From assembly GCA_044356455.1 (NCBI GenBank), contig JBIKWF010000004.1, positions 31,648-95,647 of the forward strand: 64,000 nt of DNA, given 5' to 3'. Every line of letters begins with the position of its first letter. Position 1 is the first letter of the stretch. This document shows positions 23,767-50,850 of the stretch, piece after piece. Made by a program: the position numbers and the translations under genes. Below the pieces are notes generated by a model. The model made no database searches. It was not told the DNA's origin and saw nothing but the letters and a program-made list of their open reading frames with translations. The DNA is from Bdellovibrionota bacterium (GTDB lineage: Bacteria > Bdellovibrionota_C > UBA2361 > JBGSMV01).

Positions 23767-23986
23767 GAGCAGGAAGGCGCAGTTTCTTAGGGGCATGCCA
23801 CGCAGCTTACGCCATGGCGCCCTCTCTGGGGGAGGCCATTGGAGTGGAGGCGATTGAGGCATGGCTTGCCGCATGGCTGGATTGCTCAATGAGATTCGCA
23901 TGTAAGGAAGATACCTTGTGGGGTCAAGGTTAGTAGATTTAGGCGGCGCGGACAAATGCAGGCGTGCGCATATGGCAGCTGCTATG

Positions 23987-26318: not shown

Positions 26319-27656
26319 TTACAGCGCCTTTAGTAAGTTCCCACACGCGGTGGTGAAGAGCTCAGGCTGGAAGGCCGCAGGGGTAGCGAGCGCACTATAG
26401 ATTTGGTCAACCTCGCGCTTGTGGAGGCTGCCGTCGGTGCTTAACGAGGCGGCGAGGCCAGAGATTCCCATCGCGAGCTGCTCGGCTACTTCAAAGGGCG
26501 GATGCTGAGCAGATGCTCCGTATTCCGTGAGCTTCTTGAGGAGCTTCTTTGAGGTGGCTTGATCATAGGAAGCGGAAGCATATTTCTTAGAAGCATCAGA
26601 AAGGAGAGTGCTTAAAGCCGCGGCTGCAGCCGCCGTTTCCTTGCCGTCATGCAGGCGTAGCACTTGTTCCCCAAAACGCTGACCAAAGGCGGAGTCAAGG
26701 GCGAGTAGCGCTTGCTCGGCAACAATGAGGGAGGAGATGTTGAGACGAAGTTCTCCTGGCTTTCCATCGTAGCTTCTTGTTTTCCATTGCTCCTCGGTGA
26801 GGCTGTGATGGCATGAGTAGCAATATAAGAGAGTGAGCTCAGGGCCAGCCATGAGTCCTTCGCCGGCTCGCGATCGTTTCTCGGATACCATCGCTGAAAT
26901 AAGTTCTTGAGAGCGGCTTAGCTGACCGATGAGCCACGCTCTCGCCGGGACGTACGCTTCTTTTCGACTGCGGTAATCATCATCAACATCCCAGTGAGCG
27001 GGCTGGATGGCTGAGAAGGTATCTAATTCAAAGGTAAGGCGGGGATGTCCGGCGCCAATGAGGCGATGGTCAACAGTTTTGTCGTCGGATCCTAAATGGC
27101 AAGAGAGGCAGAAGGATGCGCGAGTTGAAGGAGAAACGAGATCCGCCATGCCATTTTTAAGGTTAGCTTCGTGGGTTGCTCCCTGTTCTGTGTGTGTAGA
27201 GATGTAGTGCTCCGCTGCTCCATGGCAAGACTCGCAGCCCACTCCGTCTTCAATTCGGAACTTATCGTCCTGTAAAGCTTGGTCTTTGACATAGGTTGCG
27301 TGGCATTTCAGACACAGAGGCTCTTGCTCGGGGTTCTCGATGCCTAAATGTTCACCTATTTTCTTTGAGTCAGCACTCGTTAGCGAGAGCCAGGACTTGG
27401 CGTGGGCGTCATGTTTCGTCCATGTGCTGTATTCATTTTGAAGGACGTTCGAAGCGTTTCGAGGAGCGACGCTGCCGTGGCAGTTTGAGGAAGAGCATGA
27501 GGCAACGCCGAGGTACTTCGCATGGGCGGTTCCGCTGCGCCCCGGGCTCCCCTCGGCGTGAGCAGCTACGGGCGAAAAAAAGGAGAGAAGGGCGCTCAGC
27601 GCGAGAGATAGCGAGACTGCCGAAATACTTCGGAGCGAACGTGAATGCAGCGTCAT
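26319..27656 (-). CDS. Periplasmic multiheme cytochrome c (c554-like; 4 CxxCH + 1 CX4CH)
   Basis: Signal peptide ending AHA; CSSSNCH, CLKCH, GVGCESCHG, CLSCH, CYSCH; helical C-terminus. Confidence 0.9.
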   Translation of the reverse strand: MTLHSRSLRSISAVSLSLALSALLSFFSPVAAHAEGSPGRSGTAHAKYLGVASCSSSNCHGSVAPRNASNVLQNEYSTWTKHDAHAKSWLSLTSADSKKIGEHLGIENPEQEPLCLKCHATYVKDQALQDDKFRIEDGVGCESCHGAAEHYISTHTEQGATHEANLKNGMADLVSPSTRASFCLSCHLGSDDKTVDHRLIGAGHPRLTFELDTFSAIQPAHWDVDDDYRSRKEAYVPARAWLIGQLSRSQELISAMVSEKRSRAGEGLMAGPELTLLYCYSCHHSLTEEQWKTRSYDGKPGELRLNISSLIVAEQALLALDSAFGQRFGEQVLRLHDGKETAAAAAALSTLLSDASKKYASASYDQATSKKLLKKLTEYGASAQHPPFEVAEQLAMGISGLAASLSTDGSLHKREVDQIYSALATPAAFQPELFTTACGNLLKAL

Positions 27657-27708
27657 GATAATCAGTCGTCCTTACAGTCAAGAGTTAAGACAGTCTTCGG
27701 CAAAAAAA

Positions 27709-27790
27709 GGCAAAGCCGAAAAGCCCCAAACGGCAAAGCTCAAAAGCCCAAGGGCAAAGCTCAAAAGCCCAAGGGCAAAGCTCAAAAGAC
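27709..27790. repeat. 21-bp tandem repeat (about 4 units)
   Basis: GGCAAAGCTCAAAAGCCCAAG at 27732 and 27753; partial or degenerate units at 27709 and 27774. Confidence 0.85.
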
Positions 27791-28033
27791 AGACATCCCG
27801 TTTGTTCGCCCCCCGCACATCGACCCTGAATGCAAGACAATGTTACGAGCCATCCCCGCGATTTGAGGGATGATTTACCCAATAATTTCTTGAGTGTCAC
27901 GGAATTGTATGGTCTATTTCAGCGCGTTGCAATTTAAATTTCGGCACAAGTCGCTTTAAAATTCCTATGGAAGGCTGCTTCCTTTGGGTGGCTGTGGTCT
28001 TTACTGGGGATTGGGGTGCTCTTGTTTGGGCGT

Positions 28034-28084
28034 GCTTTCGTGCAGTGTTGGCTTTCGTGCAGTGTGGGCCTTCGTGCGGTGTTG
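28034..28084. repeat. 17-bp tandem repeat (3 units)
   Basis: GCTTTCGTGCAGTGTTG / GCTTTCGTGCAGTGTGG / GCCTTCGTGCGGTGTTG. Confidence 0.8.
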
Positions 28085-28315
28085 TCGAAAGGAGCCTCTG
28101 CCCGCATGAGTCGAGAATGCTGATGCAGGCTGGCGTTTGAAGAACGCTGGCCGCAAGCGCGTAGGTGATTTGTTTTTGTAACCTGGTCTCGCCTTAGTTT
28201 TCTAGAGAGTGGGAGCGCCAGAGTGGGGGAGTTGTTCTTTGACCTTTGGTGAGTGTGGCCTGCCGGTGATGTTTGTCCCGGTAGAGTTTTATCCCGCGGT
28301 GTTTGAAGTTTCTCT

Positions 28316-30715
28316 ATGAGTGAAGCAGCGTCATCCTCTGTGTCTTTCTCTGGAGGGGGCTTAGATCACGTTGAGGTAGCTGTTATCGGTGCAGGTCCCG
28401 CTGGGCTTGGCGCAGCTACCAACGCAGCCCACCACAAGCTTTCGCATGTGCTGATCGAGCGCAGGGAGCTTGGTAATACCGTGTTTGATTATCAGCTTGG
28501 AAAGCTGGTAATGGCGGAGCCCGCCAAACTACCTCTTCGTTCTCATGTTCCTTTTAAACAAGGAAGCCGAGAAGAGATTCTCGAGGGCTGGGCAAAGGCC
28601 GTTCAGGGCCTTGGTGTGAATGTCGTGCGCGCCGAGGTTACTAAAATTGAGCGTAAGGACGATAAATTCTACATTACGACGAACGGCGGCTCACTTACGG
28701 CGACGAACGTTGTTCTCGCTATTGGTGTTCAGGGGACTCCCCGAAAATTGGGCGTGCCTGGTGAGGACTTGCCCCACGTTGCCTACACGCTTGCCGATCC
28801 CGGCGCGTTTAAGGGCTATGACGTCATGGTGGTTGGCGCGGGTGATGCGGCGATTGAGAACGCCCTGGCACTTGCTGATAAAAATACCGTCTCTCTTCTT
28901 AACCGCGGCGCGGAGTTCCCTAGAGCGAAGGAGGCAAATGGCGCCAAAATAATGGACGCCATACGCGCAGGGAAAGTCCGTCATTTTATGAACTCCTCGG
29001 TAGCGAGAGTTGAAAGTGACGTTGCCTACATTGACACCCCGGACGGCGAAGTTGCTCTTAAGTGCAATCATATTATCGCTCGCCTAGGCGGAATTCTTCC
29101 GCGAGGCTTTCTCGAAGGGATTGGAATTCAGTTCTCGAGCAAAGATCCCAACGCGGTTCCCATTGTTAATGGGCGCTACGAGTCGAGTGTTCCTAACCTT
29201 TTCGTTTTGGGCGCGCTCATTGGTTACCCGCTCATTAAGCACGCGATTAACCAGGGACATGAAGTTATCGAGCACATACTCGGTAATAAGGTAGAGCCCG
29301 CCGATCAGGTGCTCATCGACGAGAAGCTCAAAGTTCTTCCCGGATCACCGAACGACAATCTCGCGATGATGCGAGCCAAGCTTCCTCTCTTTAAAGATCT
29401 CTCCGATGCGCAGTTCCGCGAGCTTGTGATTGACTCGACCGTTCATCAGCTTGCGCCAGGTTCTGTGGTATTTAAGCGCAACGATTACACCGACAGCTTC
29501 TTTAGCATTGTGTCGGGAGAGGTAACTGTTCAGATTTCTCCTGAGCGCGGCATCCCAATTGGTGAAAGCAATTTCTTCGGAGAAATGGGACTTCTCTCGG
29601 GACGAAGGCGTGTTGCGACGATTGTTGTTTCTAAATCAGCGGTACTGCTTGAGTCTCCTCGAAAACAGCTTCTTAAGCTTACCAACTCTGTCCCTAGCGT
29701 AAAACGCTCGCTTGACGAAGTTTTCATGCTGCGCGCGCTTGAGACTTCTGTATTTCCCGATGCAGATCCGGCTTTCTTGCGTGAGCTCGTCAAGAAGGCC
29801 CGCATGAAGAACTTCAAGAAGGGCGACGTGCTCTTTAAAGAAGGTGATATTGGCGATGTGCTTTACGTGATCCGAAAGGGTTCACTTAAGGTCTCGCGCA
29901 AGAATAAGCGTGGGGCGGATGTCACCCAGACGTACGTACCGGCCGGGCACATTGTAGGTGAAATGGCGCTGCTTTCAGCCGCAGATGCTCCGCGCTCCGC
30001 CACGGTTACCGCGGCGGTTGCCTGTGAGACCATTATCTTAGGCAAGGAAGAATTCCTGCATTTACTTGATGAGAACCCCCGCGTTCGTAAGCGCGTAGAG
30101 GAACTTGCGCGCATGCGCCAAGTAGAGAACGTGGTGTCTGAAAAGGGTGAGCAGACCGGACAGCTGCTCGACTTCATGATGACCGAAGGCGTCACGGACG
30201 CTGACAATATCTTGCTTATCGATTCTGACCTCTGCGTAGGGTGTGATAACTGCGAGAAGGCCTGTGAGGCTACTCATCATGGATTCAGCCGATTGGATCG
30301 TAAAGGAGGCAAGTCGCTCGCAAATATCCAAATTCCTATCTCCTGCAGGCATTGCGAGAACCCTTTGTGCATGACCGATTGTCCACCGGATGCGCTAACA
30401 CGCCTTCCTGACGGAGAGGTCATTATTCGAGACTCCTGTATCGGGTGTGGCAACTGTGTGCGGAGTTGCCCGTACGGGGTAATTCAGCTGGTACATGATC
30501 ATCCCGATCATGGCGGATTCTCTTTGCTTAGGCTTTTTGGGCTTGGCAAAAAATCTACTGAAGAAGGCCCTGCAAAGGCAGCGAAGTGCGATCAATGTGA
30601 ATCGCTTAAAGGTGGGCCTGCCTGTGTGCGTGCATGTCCAACGGGCGCCGCTATGCGCGTGAACCCACGGCGACTTCTAGAGCTCGTGGGTAAGAATCGT
30701 GGGAAGGAGGGCTGA
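28316..30715 (+). CDS. FAD/NAD(P)H oxidoreductase (TrxB/YpdA-like) fused to two cNMP-binding domains and a 4x[4Fe-4S] DmsB/NrfC-like domain
   Basis: VIGAGPAG, VVGAGDAA; FFGEMGLL...RVATI and VGEMALL...PRSATV; CVGCDNCEKAC, CRHCENPLCMTDCP, CIGCGNCVRSCP, CDQC...ACVRACP. Confidence 0.92.
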   Translation: MSEAASSSVSFSGGGLDHVEVAVIGAGPAGLGAATNAAHHKLSHVLIERRELGNTVFDYQLGKLVMAEPAKLPLRSHVPFKQGSREEILEGWAKAVQGLGVNVVRAEVTKIERKDDKFYITTNGGSLTATNVVLAIGVQGTPRKLGVPGEDLPHVAYTLADPGAFKGYDVMVVGAGDAAIENALALADKNTVSLLNRGAEFPRAKEANGAKIMDAIRAGKVRHFMNSSVARVESDVAYIDTPDGEVALKCNHIIARLGGILPRGFLEGIGIQFSSKDPNAVPIVNGRYESSVPNLFVLGALIGYPLIKHAINQGHEVIEHILGNKVEPADQVLIDEKLKVLPGSPNDNLAMMRAKLPLFKDLSDAQFRELVIDSTVHQLAPGSVVFKRNDYTDSFFSIVSGEVTVQISPERGIPIGESNFFGEMGLLSGRRRVATIVVSKSAVLLESPRKQLLKLTNSVPSVKRSLDEVFMLRALETSVFPDADPAFLRELVKKARMKNFKKGDVLFKEGDIGDVLYVIRKGSLKVSRKNKRGADVTQTYVPAGHIVGEMALLSAADAPRSATVTAAVACETIILGKEEFLHLLDENPRVRKRVEELARMRQVENVVSEKGEQTGQLLDFMMTEGVTDADNILLIDSDLCVGCDNCEKACEATHHGFSRLDRKGGKSLANIQIPISCRHCENPLCMTDCPPDALTRLPDGEVIIRDSCIGCGNCVRSCPYGVIQLVHDHPDHGGFSLLRLFGLGKKSTEEGPAKAAKCDQCESLKGGPACVRACPTGAAMRVNPRRLLELVGKNRGKEG

Positions 30716-30721
30716 GCAGGC

Positions 30722-31549
30722 GTGTCGAACGAAACTTTTTTCAGCTATCGGGGTTATCGGTGGTTCTGGGCGAACGTAGGGCTCGTTGCGCTCTTGACCC
30801 TGATTTACTACTGGAACGACCCTCTCGGCGTTCCAAGTGGGGGCACCGTTTTCGGCTATACTGTCGGAGGTATAGCAACGGCGGGGATTCTCTACTTGAT
30901 GTGGTACGGAATTCGGAAGCGTTCTTACCATGCGCACACTACCACACTTAAAGGCTGTCTCTCTGCACACGTTTGGCATGGGCTCGCGCTCTCTTTCATT
31001 GTGCCGCTCCACGCGGGTTTCCAGTTTGGCTGGAACGTTCATACCTTGGCCTATGTGATTATGATGCTCGTCATTGCGAGTGGGCTATGGGGGGCCGTTA
31101 ATTACGGGAGCCTGGCGCCTAATATTCAGTCACACCGAGGCGGCGGAACGGTTAAGAATCTTGTCGAACAAATACATATCGCCGAGCAGAACATCGAGGC
31201 TCTGGGATCCTCTCGCAGTGACCATTTTATTGCATTTGGAAAATCGATTGATGCTCCCTTTCGGCCGAGCTTTTGGCCGATGGTACTTGGAGCCTCCGGT
31301 GGCGGAGCCCCTCTTAATGCCAACAAGGTAGGCGCTCTTATTGCCGAGCTGCCTCCTGAGGAGAAAGAGGAGGGAGTAAAGCTGGTAAAGCTCATAGAGA
31401 GAAAACGAGCCTTGATTGCTCAAGTGCATCGAGAAGTGCGTACCGTCGCGATGCTTAAACTTTGGCTGTACTTACATTTGCCGCTCTCTTTGGCGCTGGT
31501 CGCAGCATTGGCAGTGCATATTTTTTCTGTTTTCTTCTTTCGGGGTTAG
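30722..31549 (+). CDS. Integral membrane protein with His in TM segments (possible cytochrome b)
   Basis: About 5 hydrophobic segments; HVWHG, PLHAG, VHTLA, LYLHLP, VHIFS; 6 bp downstream of the oxidoreductase. Confidence 0.8.
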   Translation: MSNETFFSYRGYRWFWANVGLVALLTLIYYWNDPLGVPSGGTVFGYTVGGIATAGILYLMWYGIRKRSYHAHTTTLKGCLSAHVWHGLALSFIVPLHAGFQFGWNVHTLAYVIMMLVIASGLWGAVNYGSLAPNIQSHRGGGTVKNLVEQIHIAEQNIEALGSSRSDHFIAFGKSIDAPFRPSFWPMVLGASGGGAPLNANKVGALIAELPPEEKEEGVKLVKLIERKRALIAQVHREVRTVAMLKLWLYLHLPLSLALVAALAVHIFSVFFFRG

Positions 31550-31555
31550 TGGCAG

Positions 31556-33340
31556 ATGAAGCTTACCGTCACGATAGAAACGATTAGTCCGAATGGCACG
31601 CGCGATGTGCATTCGGAGGTAGTCGAAAAGGATACCATAATCCTTGGCCGTGGCGCGGGCAGCGACATACGCTTGGATAGCCCGGCAGCAGCATTGGCGC
31701 ATGCACAGTTGTCGGTCGGCCCCTCAGGCCAAATAGTCATTGAAGACCTCGGGTCTTTGAGTGGCGTCCTGCTTAATGATGCGGCTATTACTCGGCAGGC
31801 TCTGCGCGTGGGGGACAAGCTTGTCCTTGCCGATGTGCAATTTCAGGTGCGCGCACGCCCCGACAGCCTTGAGCTCTATAGGGAGAAGCGTCTTGAGGAG
31901 AAGCTCGACCTGGACGCCAAGATCCGCCGGGATCTTATGGCAGTTCACGTGCCTAATCGTATCCCATCCTTCCTGCTTCTCTCCCTAATCTCTATTGCCG
32001 TCGTCTTACTTGGGTTCTTTGTGTGGCCGGTAGCTACGCCGCACAAAGGTAGCTGGTCTAGTGGCCCGATTGCGCCTCCGCATCAGATGGTGGGCCATGA
32101 TTGCACGGCATGTCATGACGGGAATTTCAAAACGATTTCCGATCAAAAATGTTTGTCTTGTCATCAGCTGACCGCGCATGCGGCACCTTTTTCTCACGGC
32201 GTTCTTACAACGGGGACCACCTCAGGTGGTGGGGGAACTGCTCCTATGAGCGCGTCTTCCAACTCTGGCGAGCCTTCATGTTCGAGCTGCCATATGGACC
32301 ACAATGGTCCGCACGGGATAATTGTGCGCCAAGCGGCTCTCTGTACCTCTTGTCACGCGAATATCGACACGTTCATGCAAGGGCTTGGTAAACAAACAAC
32401 TCTTCGGAACATTCCAAATTTTGATGGGCATCCACAATTTGCAGTTACGCTACAGCCTGAAATAGCAGGCGGTGTGGGCAGGCGTGTAAGTCTCGATGAG
32501 CCTGGGAAGCTTAAAGATGTTTCGAATATCAAGCTCAATCACAAAGTCCACTTGCAACCAAACCTGCGCACCAAAACTGGGCGGCGCACGATGCAGTGCG
32601 GAGACTGCCACGAGCTCTCTGAGAATTTCAGAACAATTAAGCCAATTGAATTCGAGAAGCATTGCCAAAGTTGCCACACTCTTGAATTCGACGAGCGTTT
32701 ACCCAAGCGCGAAGTTCCGCATGGCGACCCTGATGTCGTGTACCGCTTCCTCTATGCGGAGTACGCAAAACTTCTCTTAGGCTCCACTTCTGTCCCGTCG
32801 CCCACGCGCACCGAGTTCCAGCAGCGTGGCGGACGAATACCAGGGCGCACCTCCGCCGCTGAGGTTGAGGCGGCGAAGGCTCCGGATGATTTCTCTCGTT
32901 CCTTTGTTGAACAAGAAAGCCGGGGCGCGGAGAAAATTCTCTTCACCAAGACTGCTTGTTATCTGTGCCATAGCGTTGGCAACAACAAGACTCCCGTGCC
33001 AGACATTAAGGACAGAGCCCTTAGCTTCTTCACGATTTTGAAGCCTCAAATCCCCGACCGCTGGATGCCGAAATCTATCTTTAGTCACGGTGGACACGAG
33101 GAAGTGAGCTGCGACGACTGCCACTCCGGGGTGCGCCAGTCAGAATTCACTGCCGATGTGCTGCTTCCGAAGATTGAGAGCTGCCGTGACTGTCATGCGG
33201 AGATTTCCCGCACAGGGCATCCCGACAAGGGTAAGGTGAGTGGGGATTGTGTGACTTGCCACTCCTATCATGACTCTCGGCCGATTCCTCCTGAGAGAAA
33301 ACGCCCTGTGAAAGATATTATTTCAGATCTTAAACTTTGA
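31556..33340 (+). CDS. FHA domain - TM helix - decaheme cytochrome c
   Basis: FHA: ILGRG..SDIRL...HAQL...DLGS; TM FLLLSLISIAVVLLGFFVW; 10 CxxCH (CTACH, CLSCH, CSSCH, CTSCH, CGDCH, CQSCH, CYLCH, CDDCH, CRDCH, CVTCH). Confidence 0.92.
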   Translation: MKLTVTIETISPNGTRDVHSEVVEKDTIILGRGAGSDIRLDSPAAALAHAQLSVGPSGQIVIEDLGSLSGVLLNDAAITRQALRVGDKLVLADVQFQVRARPDSLELYREKRLEEKLDLDAKIRRDLMAVHVPNRIPSFLLLSLISIAVVLLGFFVWPVATPHKGSWSSGPIAPPHQMVGHDCTACHDGNFKTISDQKCLSCHQLTAHAAPFSHGVLTTGTTSGGGGTAPMSASSNSGEPSCSSCHMDHNGPHGIIVRQAALCTSCHANIDTFMQGLGKQTTLRNIPNFDGHPQFAVTLQPEIAGGVGRRVSLDEPGKLKDVSNIKLNHKVHLQPNLRTKTGRRTMQCGDCHELSENFRTIKPIEFEKHCQSCHTLEFDERLPKREVPHGDPDVVYRFLYAEYAKLLLGSTSVPSPTRTEFQQRGGRIPGRTSAAEVEAAKAPDDFSRSFVEQESRGAEKILFTKTACYLCHSVGNNKTPVPDIKDRALSFFTILKPQIPDRWMPKSIFSHGGHEEVSCDDCHSGVRQSEFTADVLLPKIESCRDCHAEISRTGHPDKGKVSGDCVTCHSYHDSRPIPPERKRPVKDIISDLKL

Positions 33341-35397
33341 TGAATTCACGAGTTGGAAAGGGACTCTCCATGGTTACCACTGGTAGGACAATTGGTTGGC
33401 GTTCACTAAGGCCCTTGCGCTCTCGGCCTTCTCTTCTTGCCCTGGGAGCGGGAGTGTTGGTAGTTGCGGCAGTGGGCGGTCTCTTGTCTGCGTGCTCGGG
33501 CGGCGGGGGAGGAGGAGGGGACGGCGGACGTCCTGAAGGGAGCTCGTCTGCTGATTTTGATTGTGACGGATCATGCGCTCATCAAAGTATCTCCGATGCA
33601 GAGGTACGAACGGTTCTCTCCCAGGCGGTGCGCGGGGCTCAGTCGCTCGGAGTGGCGGCTACCTTTGCGGTAGTAGATCGCGTAGGAAACGTACTCTCCG
33701 TGTATCGTATGGCCGGAGCGCCGGCCACCACCCGTATCGATGGCCAAGTGGGAGCGGTCGGAGGTCTCGAGGGCCTAGTGGTTCCCTCGACACTTGCTGC
33801 GATTTCGAAGGCGGGAACAGGCGCTTATCTCAGCAGCCAAGGCAACGCCTTTTCTACCCGCACTGCCAGTCAGATTGTTCAGGAGCATTTTAATCCCGGT
33901 GAGCGCAACCAGCCGGGGGGCCCACTCTTTGGTGTGCAGTTTTCTCAGTTGATGTGCGGAGATGTGACCGTGCGTAATTCCGACATCACCGATGGCAGAC
34001 CACTTGGCGGCAATAAGTTCTCCTTTGGAGGCTCAATTGGTCCCCGTCCTATGCCGCTAGGTCTTTCCGCCGATCCGGGTGGTATTCCTCTTTATAAGCA
34101 GGGGGATGTGGTAGGCGGGCTAGGAGTTGAGTTCGATGGCCTCTATCGATTGGACCGCGTGATAATTGATTTCGACAACGACCCGGAAGAGCGTATTGCA
34201 CTTTACGGTTCGCTTGGATTCGAGGCCCCCTCAGAACGCGTGGCGCCAAATATCAATGTGGGCAAGTCTCTTCGCTACACTGACATTTCTTACGATGACC
34301 TTGAGCCTCTTCCAGAAATAGCAGTCGAGCTTGCGGCGAGTGGTTTTGTCGCCATACCAGAATTCACTTCAGGCGTGGTGAGATCCGGAGTGCAATACGG
34401 GAGCGTTGCCTCTGGTATTGCGCTCACTACGCGCGCGGGAGTTCCTGCGGCAACACTGGTTAAGCCCGATGGTTCTCCACGTTACCCGACACGTTCCGCC
34501 GCTTCGCCGGGGGGCGCCGCGCTGTCTGCGAGCGAAGTTGATGCAATTCTCGATAGCGCCATCTTCACCGCCTTTCGAGCAAGAGCCGCTATTCGACGTC
34601 CCCTTGATGCGCCTGCCCAAGTTTCGATTTGGGTTGTCGATGATAAAGGGTCAGTGCTTGGTATGACACGCACTTCAGACGGTCCGATCTTCGGGGTCGA
34701 TGTAGCGCTTCAAAAAGCGCGTGCTGCTGCCCTTCTAAGCTCACGCGACGCAGGAGCCGCTCTTAGTGCTGCAGGGATGGGTAGTTACGTGAATGCAGCG
34801 GCGCAAGTACTAGGGGCTTCAACCTTGTCGAGCGGCACTGCTTTTGCAAATCGTTCAATTGGTAATCTTGCTCGCCCGTTTTTCCCCGATGGAATCGAAG
34901 GAAAACCAAACGGCCCCTTCTCACTTCCTTTCCCAGGTACCGTTTCTGGGGGAGCAACGTGGAGCCCGCTCAATGATGGGCTTCAGCTCGATCTTGTCTT
35001 TGGTGGGATTGCGACCGCGCTACAGCTCGCGCCGTCTGCTACGTTCCCCGCTTCGTGTACTTCCGCGAGTCTTGGTGGCCGCGCGGCGAATGGAATCCAG
35101 ATCTTCCCAGGTGCGGTGCCGCTCTACCGCGGCGCCACTCTGGTGGGAGCTATTGGAATCAGTGGTGACGGCGTGGATCAAGACGATCTCATTGCGTTCT
35201 ACGGAGTAAGTCGCCGTGGGCTTGATGCGGTGGGCCACCTTGGGGTTGGCGATCCGGTGCTTGGGTTTAATGCGCCTGTAGAAATGCGAGCTGACACCTT
35301 GGTCCTCTCGCAAGATAATTTAAGGCTTCGTTACGTAAATTGTCCTGAAGGCCCCTTCCGCGGCGATGATGATCAAAACGTGTGTGACGGATTGTGA
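33340..35397 (+). CDS. Lipoprotein with two GlcG/HbpS (DUF336) heme-binding domains
   Basis: Lipobox LLSAC then a Gly linker; AVVDRVGNVL...GGIPLYKQGDVVGGLGV and WVVDDKG...QKARAA...GAVPLYRGATLVGAIGISG; TGATG overlap with the upstream gene. Confidence 0.88.
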   Translation: MNSRVGKGLSMVTTGRTIGWRSLRPLRSRPSLLALGAGVLVVAAVGGLLSACSGGGGGGGDGGRPEGSSSADFDCDGSCAHQSISDAEVRTVLSQAVRGAQSLGVAATFAVVDRVGNVLSVYRMAGAPATTRIDGQVGAVGGLEGLVVPSTLAAISKAGTGAYLSSQGNAFSTRTASQIVQEHFNPGERNQPGGPLFGVQFSQLMCGDVTVRNSDITDGRPLGGNKFSFGGSIGPRPMPLGLSADPGGIPLYKQGDVVGGLGVEFDGLYRLDRVIIDFDNDPEERIALYGSLGFEAPSERVAPNINVGKSLRYTDISYDDLEPLPEIAVELAASGFVAIPEFTSGVVRSGVQYGSVASGIALTTRAGVPAATLVKPDGSPRYPTRSAASPGGAALSASEVDAILDSAIFTAFRARAAIRRPLDAPAQVSIWVVDDKGSVLGMTRTSDGPIFGVDVALQKARAAALLSSRDAGAALSAAGMGSYVNAAAQVLGASTLSSGTAFANRSIGNLARPFFPDGIEGKPNGPFSLPFPGTVSGGATWSPLNDGLQLDLVFGGIATALQLAPSATFPASCTSASLGGRAANGIQIFPGAVPLYRGATLVGAIGISGDGVDQDDLIAFYGVSRRGLDAVGHLGVGDPVLGFNAPVEMRADTLVLSQDNLRLRYVNCPEGPFRGDDDQNVCDGL

Positions 35398-37268
35398 GTA
35401 TGAAAAGATCGGCTCGAATAAGATCCGCAGCTTCTGGCGTAGCGCAGGCCACCTTTCTCACAGCGTTCATGGCGCTGGTTCCTGCACTTGTGCATGCCGA
35501 AGCAGTTCCTGGGGAGAATGCCTCGAAAGAGGAGAGCGCCGCCTCGGAGCCATCAACCTCTAAGGCGGGGGAGCCCGCTAAGGCTGAAGAAGTGTCAGCT
35601 CAGGGCTTGAAAGAATCCCCGATGCGCCAGCGCCCCGGAGAGGAACCCCGTCCTACGCGCTATTCACCTTTTCTTTTCGAATCAATCCCTGACATTAATT
35701 CTTCGGCCTCCGAATTTGTCCCTGTGCCCGATCGCTGGCGTCAGCTGTATGCCGGCAAATGGTACGACCCCTACAATCAGAATGTGCTTAAAGCTGATAT
35801 TCCCGTCTTTGGCACGCAGGCGCATCCTTGGTTTATTGAGCTCGGGCTGACATCAGATTCTCTCTTTGAAGGTAGAAACTTACCCACGCCGGTAGTTCCT
35901 TCATCGAGCAATAGCTCAGGGAGTACGGATACGTTCGGTCGAAGCGAGCAATTCGTCTATAACCAGAACTTTATTTTTCTCTTCTCGCTCTATCAAGGTA
36001 ATACCACCTTTAAGCCCCAGGATATTGAGTTCCGGTTCGTTCCTATTTTCAATGTGAACTACGCCGATATTGGGGAAGATGGATTGCTGCGGGTTGATGC
36101 AACCAAAGGCGATAGACGCTACGACAATCATTTTGGACCGCTTGAATTGTTCGCCGATATCCATATCGCGAACTTGACTGATAGATACGATTTCATTTCC
36201 ACTCGCATCGGTATCCAGCCTTTTAATTCTGACTTCCGGGGCTTCATCTACAACGTATCAGAACCTGGCGTGAGACTATTTGGAAACTGGAATAATAATA
36301 TCTGGCAATACAACTTGGCGTATTTTCGGCGTCTCGATAAGGACACAAACTCAGGAATCAACACCTGGTTTGAAGATCGTTACGAGGACGTGGTTATTGC
36401 CAACGTCTATCACCAGGATACTCCCGTTCTTGGGCATACCATTCAGGGCAGTATTATTTACCGCGCCGATCAAGCGGGTGAGCACCCCGATGATTACGAC
36501 AATAATGGTTTCCTCGTTCGCCCTGCGTCTATAGGTGATGAGAGGCCAAAGAATATCTATACCACCTACTTCGGTCTTACAGGGGACGGGCACATCGGCC
36601 GCGTCAATCTGACAGAAGCGCTCTACTATGTTCGGGGCTCGGAAAGTCACAATCCGATCGCAGGTCGTCAGGTAGACATCAATGCGGGGATGGCAGCAAT
36701 TGAAGCCTCGTATGACATTGATTGGGTTCGCGTGAGGACCTCGGCTTTTTGGGCATCGGGAGATAAGGATCCTTTTGATGGTGACGCTGAGGGCTTTGAT
36801 GCCATCTTTGATAATCCCAATTTTGCGGGTGGCGATATCTCTTTCTGGCAGCGTCAAGGAATTCCGTTCATTGGCGGCGGCATTGTCAACCTTGTGAATC
36901 GCAACAGCCTACTCGCGAATCTGCGTCCGGGGAAAGAAGAGGGGCAATCCAATTTTGTGAATCCGGGCGTGCGCTTGGTCAATGTGGGAGTTGATTTTGA
37001 ACTCACGCCCAAGCTGAAGCTCATCAATAACGTTTCCTATTTGCAGTTTGATAACACCTCTTCACTGGAGGCCTTGCGGCAAGATGGATCGGTGAGCCGA
37101 GATATTGGTTTCGATCTTTCCTCGGGCCTGCTCTATCGGCCCTTCCTCAATAACAACGTGCAATTTCGATTGGGAGGAGCAGTGCTTCTTCCCTCAGCGG
37201 GTACGAAAAACTTGTTCGGGAATGAGACGCTTTACAGCGCTTTCTCGAATATCATCCTGGTGTACTAA
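35394..37268 (+). CDS. Outer-membrane beta-barrel (porin-like) protein
   Basis: Signal peptide (LVHA); many amphipathic beta strands, aromatic- and Asn/Asp-rich; C-terminal aromatic residue (NIILVY); GTGA overlap with the upstream stop. Confidence 0.8.
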   Translation: MSMKRSARIRSAASGVAQATFLTAFMALVPALVHAEAVPGENASKEESAASEPSTSKAGEPAKAEEVSAQGLKESPMRQRPGEEPRPTRYSPFLFESIPDINSSASEFVPVPDRWRQLYAGKWYDPYNQNVLKADIPVFGTQAHPWFIELGLTSDSLFEGRNLPTPVVPSSSNSSGSTDTFGRSEQFVYNQNFIFLFSLYQGNTTFKPQDIEFRFVPIFNVNYADIGEDGLLRVDATKGDRRYDNHFGPLELFADIHIANLTDRYDFISTRIGIQPFNSDFRGFIYNVSEPGVRLFGNWNNNIWQYNLAYFRRLDKDTNSGINTWFEDRYEDVVIANVYHQDTPVLGHTIQGSIIYRADQAGEHPDDYDNNGFLVRPASIGDERPKNIYTTYFGLTGDGHIGRVNLTEALYYVRGSESHNPIAGRQVDINAGMAAIEASYDIDWVRVRTSAFWASGDKDPFDGDAEGFDAIFDNPNFAGGDISFWQRQGIPFIGGGIVNLVNRNSLLANLRPGKEEGQSNFVNPGVRLVNVGVDFELTPKLKLINNVSYLQFDNTSSLEALRQDGSVSRDIGFDLSSGLLYRPFLNNNVQFRLGGAVLLPSAGTKNLFGNETLYSAFSNIILVY

Positions 37269-37270
37269 CA

Positions 37271-40200
37271 ATGCGTAACGAGCGGAATCGGCTGGAGGGG
37301 ATGATGAAGATGAGGCACTACGCACTGAAATTAAGTCTCGTGGCGGGTCTTTGTGCGGGCAGTCTTTGTTCCTGGGGAATCGCTTCTAGCAGCGCAGAAG
37401 CTGAGAGGGTTGATCCTATATTGCCAGGACTTACTGCGGCTCAGGTAGAGGAAGCCAGTAAGGGATGTTTCGACTGTCACTCAAAGACTGATGCGCCGAG
37501 CATGCACACGAATCCAGGGGTGATGATCGGGTGTACGGATTGCCATGGTGGCGACGCAAAGGTGCGGGCGCAGAACCTTGTCGAGAAATCCGATGCGTGG
37601 GAGGCGGCGAAACACGCTGCTCACGTACAGCCAAAATATCCTGAGCTTTGGCCTTCCTCCGCGAATCCTCAGAACCCCTACACGAGTACGCTCAAAGAGT
37701 CGGCAGAGTACGTAAAGTTTATTAACCCAGGTGACCTTCGTGTGGCGCGGGAAACCTGCGGTGGATGCCATTCTAAGATCACGCACGCGGTTGAACGCAG
37801 CATCATGACTACGTCGGCCATGCTGTGGGGCGGCGCATCGTATAACAATAATATCCTGCCCTATAAGCGCTATATCCTAGGCGAAAGTTACGGAAGAGAT
37901 GGAATTGCCCGAGAGATTCATGCCGCAACACCGCCCTCTCCTGAGCTTATGGCGCGAGGAGCGCTTGAAAAGCTTATTCCGCTTCCACAATGGGAAGTCC
38001 TTCCTCCTGGAGACGTTTTTAGAGTGTTCGAGCGAGGCGGCATTAACATTCGCACCACCTTCCCAGAAATTGGAAATCCTAACCCTCTTGAGGACAGTGG
38101 CCGCCCCGACATTAGACAGTCGAATAGAGGACCAGGAACAGGAAGCCGCATTGCGGTGCCTGTAATCAATATCCATAAGACGCGCCTTAACGATCCGCAT
38201 CTTTCGCTGATGGGCACGAATGATCATCCAGGAGACTACCGCAGCTCGGGCTGTACGGCGTGCCACACAATCTACGCCAACGACAGAGACCCGCGGCATT
38301 CTGGTCCCTACGGCAAGTTGGGCAACGATGGGAAAACCCAGACTATCGATCCAATGATCCCCAAGGATGAAGAGGGGCACCCCATCAAGCATGAATTCAC
38401 GCGTTCCATTCCCACAAGCCAATGCATGATCTGCCATATGCATCAGCCCAACATGTTCGTGAATACTTACCTTGGGTACACGATGTGGGATTACGAAAGT
38501 GACGCCAAGGCCATGTGGCCCGAGAAGCAGAAGTATCCAACCATTGAGGAGACGTATCAGGCTCTCAAGCACAATCCGGAAGAAGCAGTAATTAGAGGTA
38601 AGTGGTCTGATCCTAAATTCCTCAAAGCAGTGTCTGAGCTTAATCCTACCCTCAAGGATACACAGTTTGCTGACTATCACGGCCATGGCTGGAACTTCCG
38701 CGCGATCTTTAAGAAGGATCGTAAGGGACACTTGCTCGACAAGGACGGAAAAATCGTCAAGTTCGACGATCCGCAGAAGTTTAAGAAGGCCGTTCACATG
38801 GCGGATATCCATGTGGACTACGGCATGCACTGCGTAGATTGCCACTTTAATCAGGATGGCCACGGAGACGGAAACATTTACGGAGAAGTAGCGCAGCAAG
38901 TCGAAATCCAGTGCCAGGATTGCCATGGGACGGCAGCGGCCAAGGCGTCGCTAAAGACTTCAGGGCCTGCAGCCCAGACCGGTGGGCGCGATCTTAGTTT
39001 GATGCGTACCCCGTTTGGTGATTCGAGATTCATCTGGAAGAATGGGGATCTCTACCAGCGATCGACGCTGACCAAGGGGCTCGAATGGAAGGTCAGCCAA
39101 GTACGTGACTCGGTGGATCCTTCAAGCAGCGAGTACAATCAGAAATCTGCGCGCGCGAAAACCATGCAGCGCTTAGGGCAAGACGGAGAGCAGCGCTGGG
39201 GCGATCTGTCAGTCATCGACCAAAGCGACAATCTGCGGAAGACCCTTGCGCATTCCGACGAGAGCATGACCTGCTTCTCCTGCCATAGTTCTTGGATCAC
39301 CAGTTGCGGCGGCTGCCATTTGCCCATTCAGGCGAATTGGAAGACCGAGAGTAAGCACTATGACGGAAAGACCACAAGAAACTGGGCAACCTACAATCCT
39401 CAGGTGGTTCGGGATGATATCTACCAGCTAGGTCTGCATGGCCCCGCCAAGGGCTTTAAAGTTGCGCCGGTGCGATCGTCAAGTGCGCTCATCTTGAGTT
39501 CCACCGACATTAGTCGAAATAAGATCTACATTCAGCAGCCCCCAACGGCAGCGTCTGGGCACAGCTCTCAAGCCTTTGCCCCGCACTTCCCGCACACTGT
39601 GCGTAAGACAGAGACGAAGTCCTGCGAGGATTGCCACGTTTCAAAGAAGAATGACAACAATGCCATCATGGCGCAGCTCCTTCTTCATGGCACTAATTTC
39701 ATGAGTTTCATGGGATATAACGCCTGGGTTGCCACAGGCGAAGAAGGACTTGAAGCGGTGAAGGTAACTGAGTGGGATGAACCTCAGTCGGTAATTGGTA
39801 GTTTCCTTCAGAAGTACGCTTACCCTGATCACTTTGAAGCGCATCAGGCGCATGGCAAGGAACTCGAAGAATCTCATCGTCATCATGGTGCGGGGGGTGC
39901 AACCAACACCGTCCAGCTTCGAGGTGAGTATCTTTATACTACCGCAGGGGAGGGAGGCTTTAGAGTTTACGATGTTGCGAATATCGCGAATAAAAATTTC
40001 TCTGAGCGTATCGTGACGTCTCCTGTTTCGCCTCTTGGCCAGGACACTCATGTGGCGACAGAGAATGCGACTTCGTTTGTTATTCCATCATCCTCTCAGA
40101 CTATTGCGCCATCTCGCAAACAGTTGCCAGAGAACATGGAGAACCCACTCCATGAGATCTACCACTATGCCTTTGTCGCAGACGCAGTCGAAGGCCTCAT

Positions 40201-41014
40201 CGTTATTAATGTCGATACCCTTAATGATGGAGATCCGACCAACAACTTTATCAAACGCGCGCTTACATGGAATGAGGGCGGAATCTTGACGGGCGCCAAG
40301 TATATCACCATGGCGGGGTCTACCACGTACGTGCTCACGCACGATAAACTCGTGGTGCTTGACCTTGATAAGCCCATGGAACCCAAGGTCATTGCGACGC
40401 TGCCATTCGATGAGGCAACCGCGGTTGCGATTCAATTCCGCTACGCGTTCGTTACGGACAAGAAGGGACTACACGTAGTCGATATTACTCATACTGCGGA
40501 GCCGAGAATCGTGAAGGGAGCATTTGTGCCCCTTGAAGATGCACGGGGTGTCTACGTGGCACGTACCTATGCCTACGTAGCGGGCGGCAAGCAGGGAGTA
40601 GTCATTGTTGATGTAGAGCGTCCGGAATCTCCGAAGATCTATCAGGTCTTTAACGACGGAGGCCGCATCAACGACACCTACGACATAAAGGTAGCGGCAA
40701 CGAACGCCTCAGCCTTTGCCTATGTGGCCGATGGCGTGAACGGTCTTGTGGTGCTGCAACTCACGGATCCTGATCGCGTGCCGACGTACTACGGCTTCTC
40801 GCCTGAAGTGAAGCCTGAAGTGATTGCGTGGAAGAAGACTGCGGGCCCAGCCCTGAATATTTCAGAAGCGCTCGAGCGTGATAGAGCGGTCGATGAGACA
40901 GGTAACCAAATTGCGGTATTTGGACGCATAGGTTCTCGGCCATTCAACCTCAAGGAGCAGCAGCACTTCTACCTTACTCGCCAGGGCAAGCTGTACACCG
41001 TGCAGGATAAGTAA
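37271..41014 (+). CDS. Secreted decaheme cytochrome c with C-terminal LVIVD-repeat beta-propeller
   Basis: Signal peptide (AEA); 10 CxxCH (CFDCH, CTDCH, CGGCH, CTACH, CMICH, CVDCH, CQDCH, CFSCH, CGGCH, CEDCH); repeats GFRVYDV, GLIVINV, KLVVLDL, GLHVVDI, GVVIVDV, GLVVLQL. Confidence 0.92.
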   Translation: MRNERNRLEGMMKMRHYALKLSLVAGLCAGSLCSWGIASSSAEAERVDPILPGLTAAQVEEASKGCFDCHSKTDAPSMHTNPGVMIGCTDCHGGDAKVRAQNLVEKSDAWEAAKHAAHVQPKYPELWPSSANPQNPYTSTLKESAEYVKFINPGDLRVARETCGGCHSKITHAVERSIMTTSAMLWGGASYNNNILPYKRYILGESYGRDGIAREIHAATPPSPELMARGALEKLIPLPQWEVLPPGDVFRVFERGGINIRTTFPEIGNPNPLEDSGRPDIRQSNRGPGTGSRIAVPVINIHKTRLNDPHLSLMGTNDHPGDYRSSGCTACHTIYANDRDPRHSGPYGKLGNDGKTQTIDPMIPKDEEGHPIKHEFTRSIPTSQCMICHMHQPNMFVNTYLGYTMWDYESDAKAMWPEKQKYPTIEETYQALKHNPEEAVIRGKWSDPKFLKAVSELNPTLKDTQFADYHGHGWNFRAIFKKDRKGHLLDKDGKIVKFDDPQKFKKAVHMADIHVDYGMHCVDCHFNQDGHGDGNIYGEVAQQVEIQCQDCHGTAAAKASLKTSGPAAQTGGRDLSLMRTPFGDSRFIWKNGDLYQRSTLTKGLEWKVSQVRDSVDPSSSEYNQKSARAKTMQRLGQDGEQRWGDLSVIDQSDNLRKTLAHSDESMTCFSCHSSWITSCGGCHLPIQANWKTESKHYDGKTTRNWATYNPQVVRDDIYQLGLHGPAKGFKVAPVRSSSALILSSTDISRNKIYIQQPPTAASGHSSQAFAPHFPHTVRKTETKSCEDCHVSKKNDNNAIMAQLLLHGTNFMSFMGYNAWVATGEEGLEAVKVTEWDEPQSVIGSFLQKYAYPDHFEAHQAHGKELEESHRHHGAGGATNTVQLRGEYLYTTAGEGGFRVYDVANIANKNFSERIVTSPVSPLGQDTHVATENATSFVIPSSSQTIAPSRKQLPENMENPLHEIYHYAFVADAVEGLIVINVDTLNDGDPTNNFIKRALTWNEGGILTGAKYITMAGSTTYVLTHDKLVVLDLDKPMEPKVIATLPFDEATAVAIQFRYAFVTDKKGLHVVDITHTAEPRIVKGAFVPLEDARGVYVARTYAYVAGGKQGVVIVDVERPESPKIYQVFNDGGRINDTYDIKVAATNASAFAYVADGVNGLVVLQLTDPDRVPTYYGFSPEVKPEVIAWKKTAGPALNISEALERDRAVDETGNQIAVFGRIGSRPFNLKEQQHFYLTRQGKLYTVQDK

Positions 41015-42962: not shown

Positions 42963-44540
42963 ATGAATCGGATTGCTCTATATTTCGGAAATAACAAACT
43001 CTACCGCGTGGAGCTGCAGCATCATCTGCTGTCTTCCCCTGTGGTAAGTATGCGAGGCAAGACTCCGCGTGGTAGGGGAGCGTCCGCAAGCTTCCAATGG
43101 ACGAGAGCGGTGCACGCGCTCTCCGTTCTTCTTTTGAAAGGTGCCTTACGTCAGGTGACCACCGAAGAAGGTCAGTTGGAGGCCGCGATAGAAGGAGAGC
43201 GAAATAGTTTTGCCGCGAGTCTTGATTACGCGCTCGGGAGGCGCCCAGCTTGGTTGACTGAAATGTTTGGATTCACTCACACCAAGCGATCGATCTTGAA
43301 CCTTCTCTTTGTACGTTCGAACCCGGAGCAGAGAGTCCCAGGGCCCGTCTCAGTGGCTCTTCGGCCTCGAGCATGGAGCGAGATGAAGATCGAGGTCTTC
43401 GAGTACAGCCGGCAATTGAGAGAGCGTGGGGAGTTGACTGCCCTCCTTGCTCGACTTGACCCTGAGTTGAACAGTGCGTTGGAGATTAGGGACCGTGAGG
43501 TGCCGCGCACTCCATGTGCTGAGATGTATGAATCTCTTCGCGAGATCCTCCGTCCTGCCTATCGGGCAGAGGTGTTGCGGAGCCTCACCGCCACCAATCC
43601 TCTAAGTCCAGATTGCTTAAAGAGTTGTGTTCGCAACTTTATGGCGAATCCAAGCCTCACACGTAGGCTTGGCCGAAAGGTGAACGAATTTGGGATGCTC
43701 CTGAGGAGCGTCGATACCACAACACGGCTCGGATTAGATGCGTATCGGAAGGATGTCGTCGAAAGAATTCATGAGGCAGGAGAGATACAAGTAGTTGCTC
43801 CAGTAGTATTCGCGGCCTCTCAGGCGCTCTTTACTTATTTGAAGCACTGGCGCGGGTTACCGCTTCAGATTCTTGATCAGTATCCACATGCGGTTGAGTC
43901 AAGTGCACAACTAGCGAAGGGAAATTTTGCGGTCCCTCCCGATTTCGTGATGCAGGGGCTTGGTCCCGCGATTACCGTAATGAAATCATCCGTCGGATCC
44001 GAGTATTCACCATTCATGATGATGCCCGAGGGGCGGATCACACTCCTTACCGCGGGCAGGGAAGACGTGCCACTGAATGGTCTTAGGCATCTCTACCTTC
44101 TTAACGATGAGCCCTCGAGTCCTTTATTTCTGCTAGAAAATCTGATCCGTGACTTCGGGTACCGTGGCGATGCGTCGCATGAGGAGTTGGATGCGAGCAT
44201 TCAACGCCTTAGAAGTGCCGAGAAGGGAGAAGCTTCTATCCTTATGTTCCCGTTCAACTATCTTGTTCGACGTTACTCAGAGTCCTTTGAATGTAACGCG
44301 CCACGGGGAAGCGTCACGGCAGATTACCTACTGTTTGCTTCCAAAAGAATCACGTCTCAACCCAAACTCGCAAACGCCTTTGAAATAGTGATACGTGATG
44401 CCTGGCTTGAGTTAATCTCGAATACTGCGCTTCGAAATGCAGTCGTAGATAAACTTCTCTCGAGCGAACAGCATCTTCGTGTGATTAGCCGCGGATCGGG
44501 ACTTGTTGGCGAATCGGGCGCATTGCCTGTCGCGGCCTAG
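42963..44540 (+). CDS. Hypothetical protein (525 aa), possible one-component regulator
   Basis: GAGG RBS; basic N-terminal domain (SLDYALGRRPAWLTEMFG); the C-terminal alpha/beta region resembles a ligand-binding fold (inference). Confidence 0.7.
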   Translation: MNRIALYFGNNKLYRVELQHHLLSSPVVSMRGKTPRGRGASASFQWTRAVHALSVLLLKGALRQVTTEEGQLEAAIEGERNSFAASLDYALGRRPAWLTEMFGFTHTKRSILNLLFVRSNPEQRVPGPVSVALRPRAWSEMKIEVFEYSRQLRERGELTALLARLDPELNSALEIRDREVPRTPCAEMYESLREILRPAYRAEVLRSLTATNPLSPDCLKSCVRNFMANPSLTRRLGRKVNEFGMLLRSVDTTTRLGLDAYRKDVVERIHEAGEIQVVAPVVFAASQALFTYLKHWRGLPLQILDQYPHAVESSAQLAKGNFAVPPDFVMQGLGPAITVMKSSVGSEYSPFMMMPEGRITLLTAGREDVPLNGLRHLYLLNDEPSSPLFLLENLIRDFGYRGDASHEELDASIQRLRSAEKGEASILMFPFNYLVRRYSESFECNAPRGSVTADYLLFASKRITSQPKLANAFEIVIRDAWLELISNTALRNAVVDKLLSSEQHLRVISRGSGLVGESGALPVAA

Positions 44541-50653: not shown

Positions 50654-50850
50654 AGAGTTCCCCTGAAAGGAGACATAAAAAGAGCAGAGAATAGAATCGG
50701 CAGAGCCGAGCTGATTCCCAAGTGCCATACTCGCCTGTAGATGCCCCCGGCGGTAAAGTGTGTAAACATTATTGGTTTCAGCCGGTTGCGGCTTTTTCGG
50801 GGTGCTGCGATTGTGGGGTGAGGGCCCGAAATCCCTAGGGATAAGATTTC

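Follow-up and report, generated by a model that had tools for sequence, protein, structure and literature searches.

Whether seven adjoining genes for multiheme cytochromes, an outer-membrane barrel and a flavo-iron-sulfur enzyme form an electron conduit out of the cell, or serve some other chemistry across the envelope, is the question raised by a locus of a Bdellovibrionota bacterium (GCA_044356455.1). The window, that is, the whole 64,000-nt stretch that was analysed, covers 31,648-95,647 on the forward strand of contig JBIKWF010000004.1; the cluster occupies 26319..41014 of it, and all coordinates given for its genes (g0 to g6) are window positions. The first-pass annotation, made from the letters alone, had proposed a wire through a porin or, failing that, a redox sensor or enzyme; the wire part was not upheld, and the enzyme or sensor fallback fits the data better. 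The reading that we favor, at a probability of roughly one half, is a two-module, cyclic-nucleotide-gated line that takes reductant from the cytoplasm to an outer-envelope enzyme acting on a small solute. It draws on domains, motifs, gene linkage, the size of the barrel in a structural model and an enrichment of cyclase genes, each of which was observed at these loci.

Gene content and distribution

Seven open reading frames were present, six of them co-oriented with gaps of 6, 6, -4, -4 and 2 bp from g1 to g6, and g0 divergent. They contain the 25 heme motifs counted in the first pass: 24 CxxCH (four in g0 and ten each in g3 and g6) and one CxxxxCH in g0. Pfam searches and alignments also confirmed the domains, namely Pyr_redox, two cyclic nucleotide monophosphate (cNMP) domains and the Fer4 domain of a four-cluster Fe-S protein in g1, FHA and c3/c7 in g3, two HbpS/GlcG stretches in g4, LVIVD in g6 and c554 in g0 (PF13435, E 1.5e-13). 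The Pfam search of g5 gave no match, and none of the NCBIfam models listed reached its own cut-off on the seven proteins. Only two open reading frames of the 4.7-Mb genome have ten CxxCH motifs, g3 and g6; as both lie in the cluster, the grouping is more than chance, and a chance assembly of genes was rejected.

The g5 barrel had 7,253 homologues among 8,000 candidates scored, and a GTDB scan with it gave at least 598 confirmed matches, 80 of which underlie the locus counts. By record titles, the barrel matches listed belong to Bdellovibrionales/Oligoflexia, Alpha-, Beta- and Gammaproteobacteria, Planctomycetota, Acidobacteriota and Nitrospirae. Immediately 3′ of g5 lies g6 in 66 of the 68 loci having downstream room, and among the 44 loci of at least 17 kb, all seven genes were found in 21 and at least six (minus g0) in 27. 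At other loci g0 is often co-oriented inside the cluster, unlike the divergent g0 here. One unpublished locus (L100, genome G145) makes up one of the 54 rows of alignment A4, one of the 44 and one of the 80 loci, and no claim is based on it alone. Sphingobium herbicidovorans has all seven genes, and a Sphingopyxis plasmid, within the stretch fetched, has g0, g4, g5 and g6 only.

Within the host phylum (124 genomes; thresholds of 1e-3 and 1e-100 for the g5 and g1 searches), g5 matches occurred in 68 genomes and g1 matches in 72, and a hand tally gave both in 67, neither in 51 and one only in 6, mostly incomplete assemblies. Seventeen long loci lacked a full inner module (g1, g2 and g3) nearby; 16 of these genomes were searched whole, and a g2-type protein was found in 16/16, the background rate in phylum-wide samples being 24/151 and 50/201. 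The inner module and the outer module (the barrel g5, the lipoprotein g4 and the decaheme-propeller protein g6) travel together across genomes, and the cluster is real, widespread across several bacterial phyla and uncharacterised. The co-occurrence in other genomes that the first pass had called for was seen as linkage across phyla.

The inner module and its cytoplasmic link

At the cytoplasmic end, g1 (28316..30715, + strand; 799 aa) comprises an FAD-NAD(P)H domain of the TrxR/FNR type, a DmsB/HydN-type [4Fe-4S] domain with four clusters and, placed between the two, tandem cNMP domains. Sixteen Cys in four Fe-S motifs are conserved in its alignment, and the consensus of the TrxR/FNR-type domain has no conserved redox CxxC. 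In Proteobacteria and Bdellovibrionota the FAD part (TrxR-type) is fused to cNMP-FeS; in Acidobacteria the cNMP, Fe-S and membrane domains are fused to each other, and a separate g1-type FAD gene stands alongside in 4/5 regions. A cNMP-FeS protein was found in 15 of 20 planctomycete regions and was fused to a TrxR-type domain in none of them, and in three planctomycete regions the inner module adjoins NuoEF-like, FNR-like or rubredoxin-reductase-like flavoproteins, often with FHA domains. Since several NAD(P)H-type flavoproteins serve as partners or are fused, the NAD(P)H link appears to hold, by several routes, in agreement with the NAD(P)H-linked cytoplasmic end proposed at first. NAD(P)H would reduce the FAD of g1, and the electrons would then pass through the four [4Fe-4S] clusters to the b hemes of g2.

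The planctomycete flavoprotein pairings are located at L164:13508-17921, L166:5899-9562 and L170:10012-14949. The acidobacterial form (L173:3128-9102, L174:6888-12605, L175:8323-14011 and L178:6494-12293) places an FHA-heptaheme protein next to the cNMP-FeS-membrane-protein fusion and includes a further conserved tetraheme and two nonahemes; its separate g1-type FAD protein has a hydrophobic N-terminus and one heme motif.

The inner-membrane protein g2 (30722..31549, + strand) is ferric-reductase-like and contains H83/H97, H252/H266 and SGxxG at 120, with W248 preceding H252. These His are kept in 35-36 of 36 rows, and the Trp of the first of the two W-x3-H-x13-H motifs, present in 33/36 rows, is Cys here. 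Five helices were read by eye, of which a hydropathy scan flagged two only. From its motifs, g2 probably binds two b hemes, and these would carry electrons over the inner membrane into the anchored decaheme g3, which would span the periplasm. The same SGxxG and two HX13H motifs, with a relation to the ferric reductase/NOX diheme domain, were described for the inner membrane protein of PCC3 and PCC4 clusters (He et al. 2017, PMC5566968).

This step bears on the direction of flow within the cluster. NAD(P)H electrons that run outward via a transmembrane diheme spend membrane potential, as in NOX/FRE enzymes. Such dissipation would explain tight gating and would make the line one of reductant supply rather than respiration; a gated reductant supply fits aerobes, and the host lineages of the barrel matches are presumably mostly aerobic. 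We consider it quite improbable that electrons instead flow inward, with g6 oxidising a periplasmic substrate and g3 passing the electrons to g2 and then to the quinone pool or uphill to NAD(P)+. Such flow would suit the terminal oxidases of the host and the resemblance of g0 to c554, the acceptor of hydroxylamine oxidoreductase. The quinone variant corresponds to the PCC4 model of He et al. 2017 (PMC5566968), who propose the membrane protein as a quinone-active cytochrome b. However, the Fe-S domain is always next to g2, and in Acidobacteria the two form one protein, which points to a partner in the cytoplasm and not to quinone alone. The module occurs with four different NAD(P)H-type flavoproteins, and ferric-reductase and NOX domains usually export electrons.

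The third inner gene, g3 (31556..33340, + strand), encodes a degenerate FHA domain in the cytoplasm, a single transmembrane helix (138-156) and a decaheme region in the periplasm. It is the least conserved gene, with a median identity of 28.5% to 36 distant homologues, and is wire-like. A phosphothreonine-binding FHA domain has the motif G-R, S-x-x-H, N-G; in g3 and its homologues, G-R is found in 31/35, the His in 27/35 and the Ser in 3/35, and no Asn is conserved. A phospho-switch at this degenerate domain was rejected. In three loci (L027, L079 and L086) the heme-bearing region aligns without the FHA part.

The cNMP domains of g1 point to the way in which the line could be gated. In 29-31 of 31 homologues, both retain the G-E and Arg that mark a phosphate-binding cassette; this is the motif of CAP/PKA-type cAMP/cGMP domains, and by it the two domains would be expected to bind cAMP or cGMP. 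A class III cyclase was found inside the locus, within 10 kb, in 9/44 loci of at least 17 kb, compared with 0.9 expected from 190 cyclase matches over 200 Mb of the same genomes; five of the cyclase open reading frames were confirmed by Pfam, four of them with CHASE2. Two acidobacterial genomes have two cyclases next to the inner module, and genome G011 has a second, stand-alone g1-g2-g3 copy, without outer module, between two pairs of FecR-TPR-barrel and CHASE2-cyclase genes. In Sinorhizobium, CHASE2 cyclases have been described as raising cAMP once an outer-membrane barrel senses a signal. The second-messenger control suggested in the first pass is supported, as far as motifs and gene neighbours can tell, by the cyclase neighbours and the intact binding motifs. 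Binding of cAMP or cGMP at the tandem cNMP domains would open the electron path, the nucleotide often being supplied by a neighbouring CHASE2- or FHA-type cyclase. The second copy of G011 is located at L105:3748-19663 and L152:3-1712.

The same neighbourhood could be read in terms of a sensory device, in which the outer module would detect a ligand or redox state and the heme chain would pass this information on to cNMP/FHA signalling in the cytoplasm while carrying little net flux. Genes for cyclases, FHA proteins and FecR-TPR receptors are grouped in the vicinity, and the GlcG relatives that have been studied, HbpS and EfgA, are sensors. Yet none of the seven conserved genes has an output domain (kinase, DNA-binding or cyclase), cNMP domains are normally inputs, and 25 hemes with four Fe-S clusters would be costly for this purpose; we regard a sensory device as quite improbable.

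The outer module

On the outer side, g5 (35394..37268, + strand) had been called a beta-barrel, and its AlphaFold2 model is an outer-membrane beta-barrel of 18 long strands (mean pLDDT 69). The first fold match in Foldseek and VIA-align was AlgE 4xnk (Z 23.9, root-mean-square deviation 3.7, 371 aligned), followed by Occ/OprD porins, MOMP and chitoporin, and a profile search of PDB sequences found nothing. AlgE/OprD-type barrels are solute channels, and 18 strands are too narrow for a heme chain. The residues at 80% conservation among 54 diverse homologues are 13 Asp, 7 Arg, 2 Lys, 1 Glu, 1 His and no Cys. In this cluster, as in MtrCAB, MtoAB and PioAB, decaheme genes adjoin an outer-membrane barrel gene; however, MtrCAB combines a surface cytochrome with a barrel (MtrB) described as having 26 strands that sheathe MtrA, held inside, whereas g5 has 18 strands and no match to the MtrB/PioB family (PF11854). 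The 93%-complete host genome has no PF11854 match either, and the DmsE/MtrA-family model TIGR03508, whose cut-off is 192 bits, scored 29.9 in g3 and 22.3 in g0. The Mtr-like wire via a porin is therefore at odds with the barrel as modelled, and g5 would be a solute-type channel admitting or releasing the small polar substrate or product of g6. That MtrB and multiheme enzymes are missing among the listed fold-match rows excludes nothing. A complex prediction of g5 (135-624) with part of the g6 heme domain scored 0.00 with controls that did not fold, and it was used neither way.

A narrow barrel could still take part in extracellular electron transfer of a non-Mtr kind, by anchoring g6 or by admitting a small redox shuttle (quinone, humic fragment or metal chelate), with NAD(P)H offloaded outside on a cAMP signal. 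We consider this possible but unlikely. The 25 hemes could bridge the periplasm, g6 directly follows g5 in nearly all loci, and the same inner module occurs in PCC3-type loci with cytochromes of 21-68 hemes; moreover, a karst survey classed what is probably the same cluster as a porin-cytochrome complex (PMC13264449). The DNA was also found in lake-water metagenomes: besides a possible source run, five runs from five studies, labelled lake water, contain at least half of its sampled words, and no RNA run is among the sequencing runs listed as containing it. On the other hand, the barrel has 18 strands rather than 26, the cluster has no lipoprotein cytochrome or surface cytochrome, g6 has few hemes for its length (10 in 1247 aa), a cell that sends NAD(P)H electrons outward gains no conserved energy from it, and the hosts mostly belong to lineages regarded as aerobes.

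The properties of g6 (37271..41014, + strand; start probably Met12) would suit an enzyme at the end of the line. The protein has an exported decaheme domain (approximately residues 56-810) and an LVIVD seven-blade beta-propeller, and it is the best-conserved of the genes, with a median identity of 56% across phyla to 58 distant homologues, against 28.5% for g3 at the same loci. Non-heme motifs are invariant (K303-T-R-L, and H-G-W at 472-474), and the conserved His and Met exceed what ten hemes require. This conservation, together with the invariant motifs and spare His/Met, suggests catalysis over wiring, that is, that g6 may be a conserved multiheme enzyme; electrons would pass to it from g3 and meet their catalytic end point there. 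Its model (pLDDT 78, pTM 0.83) consists of an irregular heme domain and a propeller whose best structural matches are seven-bladed (Z about 29). Searches with the single sequence against the PDB gave chance-level matches only, the ESM Atlas returned only own-family or generic cytochrome clusters, and the 120 matches listed for the heme domain among shorter proteins were mostly fragments labelled partial or hypothetical. The label "secreted" given in the first pass was not borne out: g6 has a Sec-type signal only, and its homologues lack a lipobox Cys, which leaves the periplasm as the default location.

The logic of such a line would resemble that of the Geobacter extHIJKLMNOPQS system (PMC5877670), taken together with the polysulfide reductase MccSep (PMC13510729), rather than MtrCAB. 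There too a solute-type porin goes with a conserved multiheme enzyme, with additional cytochromes and with a pair of cytochrome b and Fe-S proteins. The models of ExtM, ExtN and ExtO match g6 over short stretches (E 3e-21 to 2e-7), two in number for ExtM and ExtN, whose scores are far below their cut-offs (75 vs 800 bits and 30 vs 200 bits). The ext system differs in having a Rieske/bc-type inner part, a rhodanese and a selenoprotein, and its available description includes no cNMP or NAD(P)H enzyme.

The lipoprotein g4 (33337..35397, + strand; LSAC lipobox, Cys53) carries two GlcG/HbpS/DUF336 domains and is a lipoprotein in most lineages. It belongs to the fold family of EfgA, HbpS and PduOC, and its second domain holds the EfgA pocket, K57, S114 and D121 being kept as K460 in 54/54, S609 in 54/54 and D616 in 51/54 rows; the mapping assumes a 20-residue tag offset, which fits six published residue numbers. 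In EfgA this pocket is reported to bind formaldehyde derivatives (Bazurto 2021). Unlike these relatives, g4 is an exported tandem-domain protein with long conserved inserts and no conserved heme-ligating His: no His is conserved at 60% or more among 54 sequences, whereas heme binding by PduOC needs His18 (PduOC 2016). The database label "heme-binding protein" is therefore unsupported for g4, which might bind heme in some other mode, and a role in heme storage or degradation was rejected. In the favored mechanism, g4 would bind the small substrate or product that uses g5, or else an intermediate, on the inner side of the outer membrane. An M10 peptidase domain forms part of two planctomycete homologues (L037:6181-9795 and L059:5018-8101), one of which has RTX repeats as well; this hints at an extracellular location in planctomycetes.

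The divergent gene g0 (26319..27656, - strand; 445 aa) encodes a periplasmic cytochrome c554-like protein with four CxxCH and one CxxxxCH motif. Its profile matches cytochrome c554 1bvb (E 1.8e-7), both Cys and the His of CxxxxCH are invariant in 29/29 aligned homologues, and its C-terminal half is helical and matches helical proteins only. It could be a soluble relay or partner of the chain.

A more specific form of the favored reading would make the cluster a bacterial counterpart of regulated NADPH oxidases. A FecR-TPR-barrel receptor in the outer membrane and a CHASE2 cyclase would raise cAMP, cAMP would directly switch on g1, g1 would send NADPH electrons through both compartments, and the multiheme-propeller enzyme that receives them, of a new class, would make or destroy a small reactive molecule that passes through its own channel. 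We hold this form to be rather doubtful.

Several points weigh against the gated line and its terminal enzyme. The nine cyclase-bearing loci are non-independent and represent roughly five to six lineages; six independent loci would remain unlikely (p 4e-4). The window itself is free of cyclase genes, and all four of the host genome are on other contigs. The PCC-type membrane protein has been proposed to be quinone-active (He et al. 2017, PMC5566968), which would permit other flow directions, and PCC3-type giant-cytochrome clusters, which are themselves proposed conduits, use homologues of g1, of g2 and of part of g3. The confidence of the g5 model is moderate, residues 91-134 having a pLDDT below 50. 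High conservation of g6 could equally mark a structural core; both of its fold searches were filled by propeller matches, which left the heme domain unplaced, and its profile gave weak matches to octaheme and pentaheme nitrite reductases in the PDB (E 0.018 to 0.6) that serve as a lead only. Finally, the K-S-D pocket is highly conserved in DUF336 proteins at large (Bazurto 2021) and thus names no ligand for g4.

Related clusters and genomic surroundings

Compared with described systems, the cluster is a variant of a known but unstudied kind with its own outer module. The inner module has precedent, since its parts recur in PCC4/ptd clusters and homologues of them are found at PCC3-type loci. 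What is distinct is the outer module (18-strand barrel, double-GlcG lipoprotein and decaheme-propeller protein). The ptdABCDEFG cluster (Elbon et al., bioRxiv 10.1101/2023.11.21.568154) is described as containing a porin, an FAD/NAD(P) oxidoreductase and cytochromes with 5, 4 and 10 hemes, ptdEFG encoding a cNMP/4Fe-4S protein, a ferric-reductase-like membrane protein and a decaheme; its function is stated to be unknown, as is that of PCC4 (PMC5566968), which has an Fe-S gene upstream of the inner membrane protein gene. The cNMP/4Fe-4S protein of ptd contradicts the earlier supposition that cNMP modules are absent from porin-cytochrome clusters. Given the 4/5/10-heme content and the hosts that they share, ptd and PCC4 are probably one system. 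The MHCscan table, as far as it was available, has no Hyphomicrobium, Mariprofundus or Oceanospirillum beijerinckii rows.

As in PCC4/ptd, a protein with Fe-S (PF13247) and cNMP domains lies directly 5′ of the membrane protein here and a decaheme 3′ of it (g1-g2-g3), and g2 has SGxxG and both H-x13-H motifs. The clusters differ in their hemes (5, as 4+1, 10 and 10 here; 4, 5 and 10 there), in the FAD part (fused to cNMP-FeS here, a separate FAD/NAD(P) oxidoreductase in ptd) and in the pentaheme, whose C-terminal beta-sandwich in ptd is replaced by a helical half in g0. Compared by description only, ptd is without a GlcG lipoprotein (g4) or a 1250-aa decaheme-propeller protein (g6). A ptd-like planctomycete region (L167), whose identity with ptd is unproven, shares the inner module, and its porin-like gene and pentaheme match no g5, g4 or g6 profile. 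This region (L167:3532-13992) encodes a porin-like protein, a 623-aa pentaheme, a 17-heme protein, a membrane protein, a cNMP-FeS protein and an FHA-15-heme protein.

PCC3 clusters are described as having periplasmic and extracellular cytochromes with medians of 21 and 34 hemes (He et al. 2017), unlike the present cluster with at most 10 hemes per protein. Most of the 15 Nitrospirota regions around g2 matches (L137-L151) were giant-cytochrome clusters (21-68 hemes) of PCC3-like content, in which the profiles of g2 and of the start of the g3 heme block match. An Fe-S/FAD homologue of g1 was present in 7/15 (E 1e-64 to 1e-75), suggesting that PCC3-like clusters may have an NAD(P)H link too. No g4, g5, g6 or cNMP profile match was found in the 15 regions, and their porin-like genes are unrelated.

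The cluster has probably been met in surveys. By description, the "Group 1" porin-cytochrome complex of the Sterkfontein karst (PMC13264449), with a 4-5 kb decaheme gene adjoining an approximately 20-strand porin and a ferredoxin-NADP reductase gene nearby in 7/11, is probably this cluster. MHCscan rows (PMC11475568) for Sphingobium herbicidovorans (462/658/612/1329 aa) match it in order, sizes and heme numbers, and a Limnobacter row (449/1299/744/655/488 aa) also matches. In the available text of both surveys the system is unnamed, experiments on it are absent, and the cNMP, FHA, GlcG and propeller parts are undescribed. The Tenderiales uet cluster and the system of Arbour et al. 2020, as far as their descriptions were available, are other systems. 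A full-text literature search, whose coverage left out most subscription journals, found no functional study of the cluster.

The cluster is conserved across phyla, including the cultured and tractable Sphingobium herbicidovorans and Limnobacter, and occurs in over half of the host phylum. Surveys that score any porin beside a decaheme as extracellular electron transfer probably include it, and if g6 is indeed the enzyme at the end of the line, the numbers of electroactive bacteria estimated for lakes, soils and groundwater would be too high. If cAMP directly gates a flavo-Fe-S enzyme, second-messenger signalling would be tied to envelope redox chemistry; under the NADPH-oxidase-like form, hundreds of aerobic species would have an electron-transfer chain under the allosteric control of a second messenger. 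The shared inner module links PCC3, PCC4/ptd and this cluster, possibly as a single family of envelope chains that are fed by NAD(P)H and whose outer ends are interchangeable.

Between g0 and g1 lies a divergent intergenic region of 659 bp (27657..28315) with two short tandem arrays, one of 3.7 copies of 21 bp (27709-27788) and one of three copies of 17 bp (28034-28084); an exact-match search of this region for the CRP-box half-sites TGTGA/TCACA found none. The DTW gene at 41047, 32 bp after g6, was left out of the cluster because it is absent from the recurrent conserved neighbours. Four long open reading frames of the window had no Pfam match at the thresholds used: 5676-9638 (1320 aa), 42963-44540 (525 aa), 45831-47672 (613 aa) and 47729-50728 (999 aa). 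Upstream of the cluster, and outside its conserved part, genes for an RND-type efflux pump and a TolC-like protein were recognised from their translations at 19379-23955.

The host genome encodes ccm genes, two heme-copper oxidases and few multiheme proteins. In nine proteobacterial loci, ccm genes were seen by eye directly 5′ of the cluster (L031, L032, L036, L044, L051, L055, L079, L081 and L086). In Sphingobium (L001:1-9674), a CHASE2 cyclase, a ShlB/FhaC-family transporter and a 2,092-aa hypothetical protein precede the cluster on the same strand.

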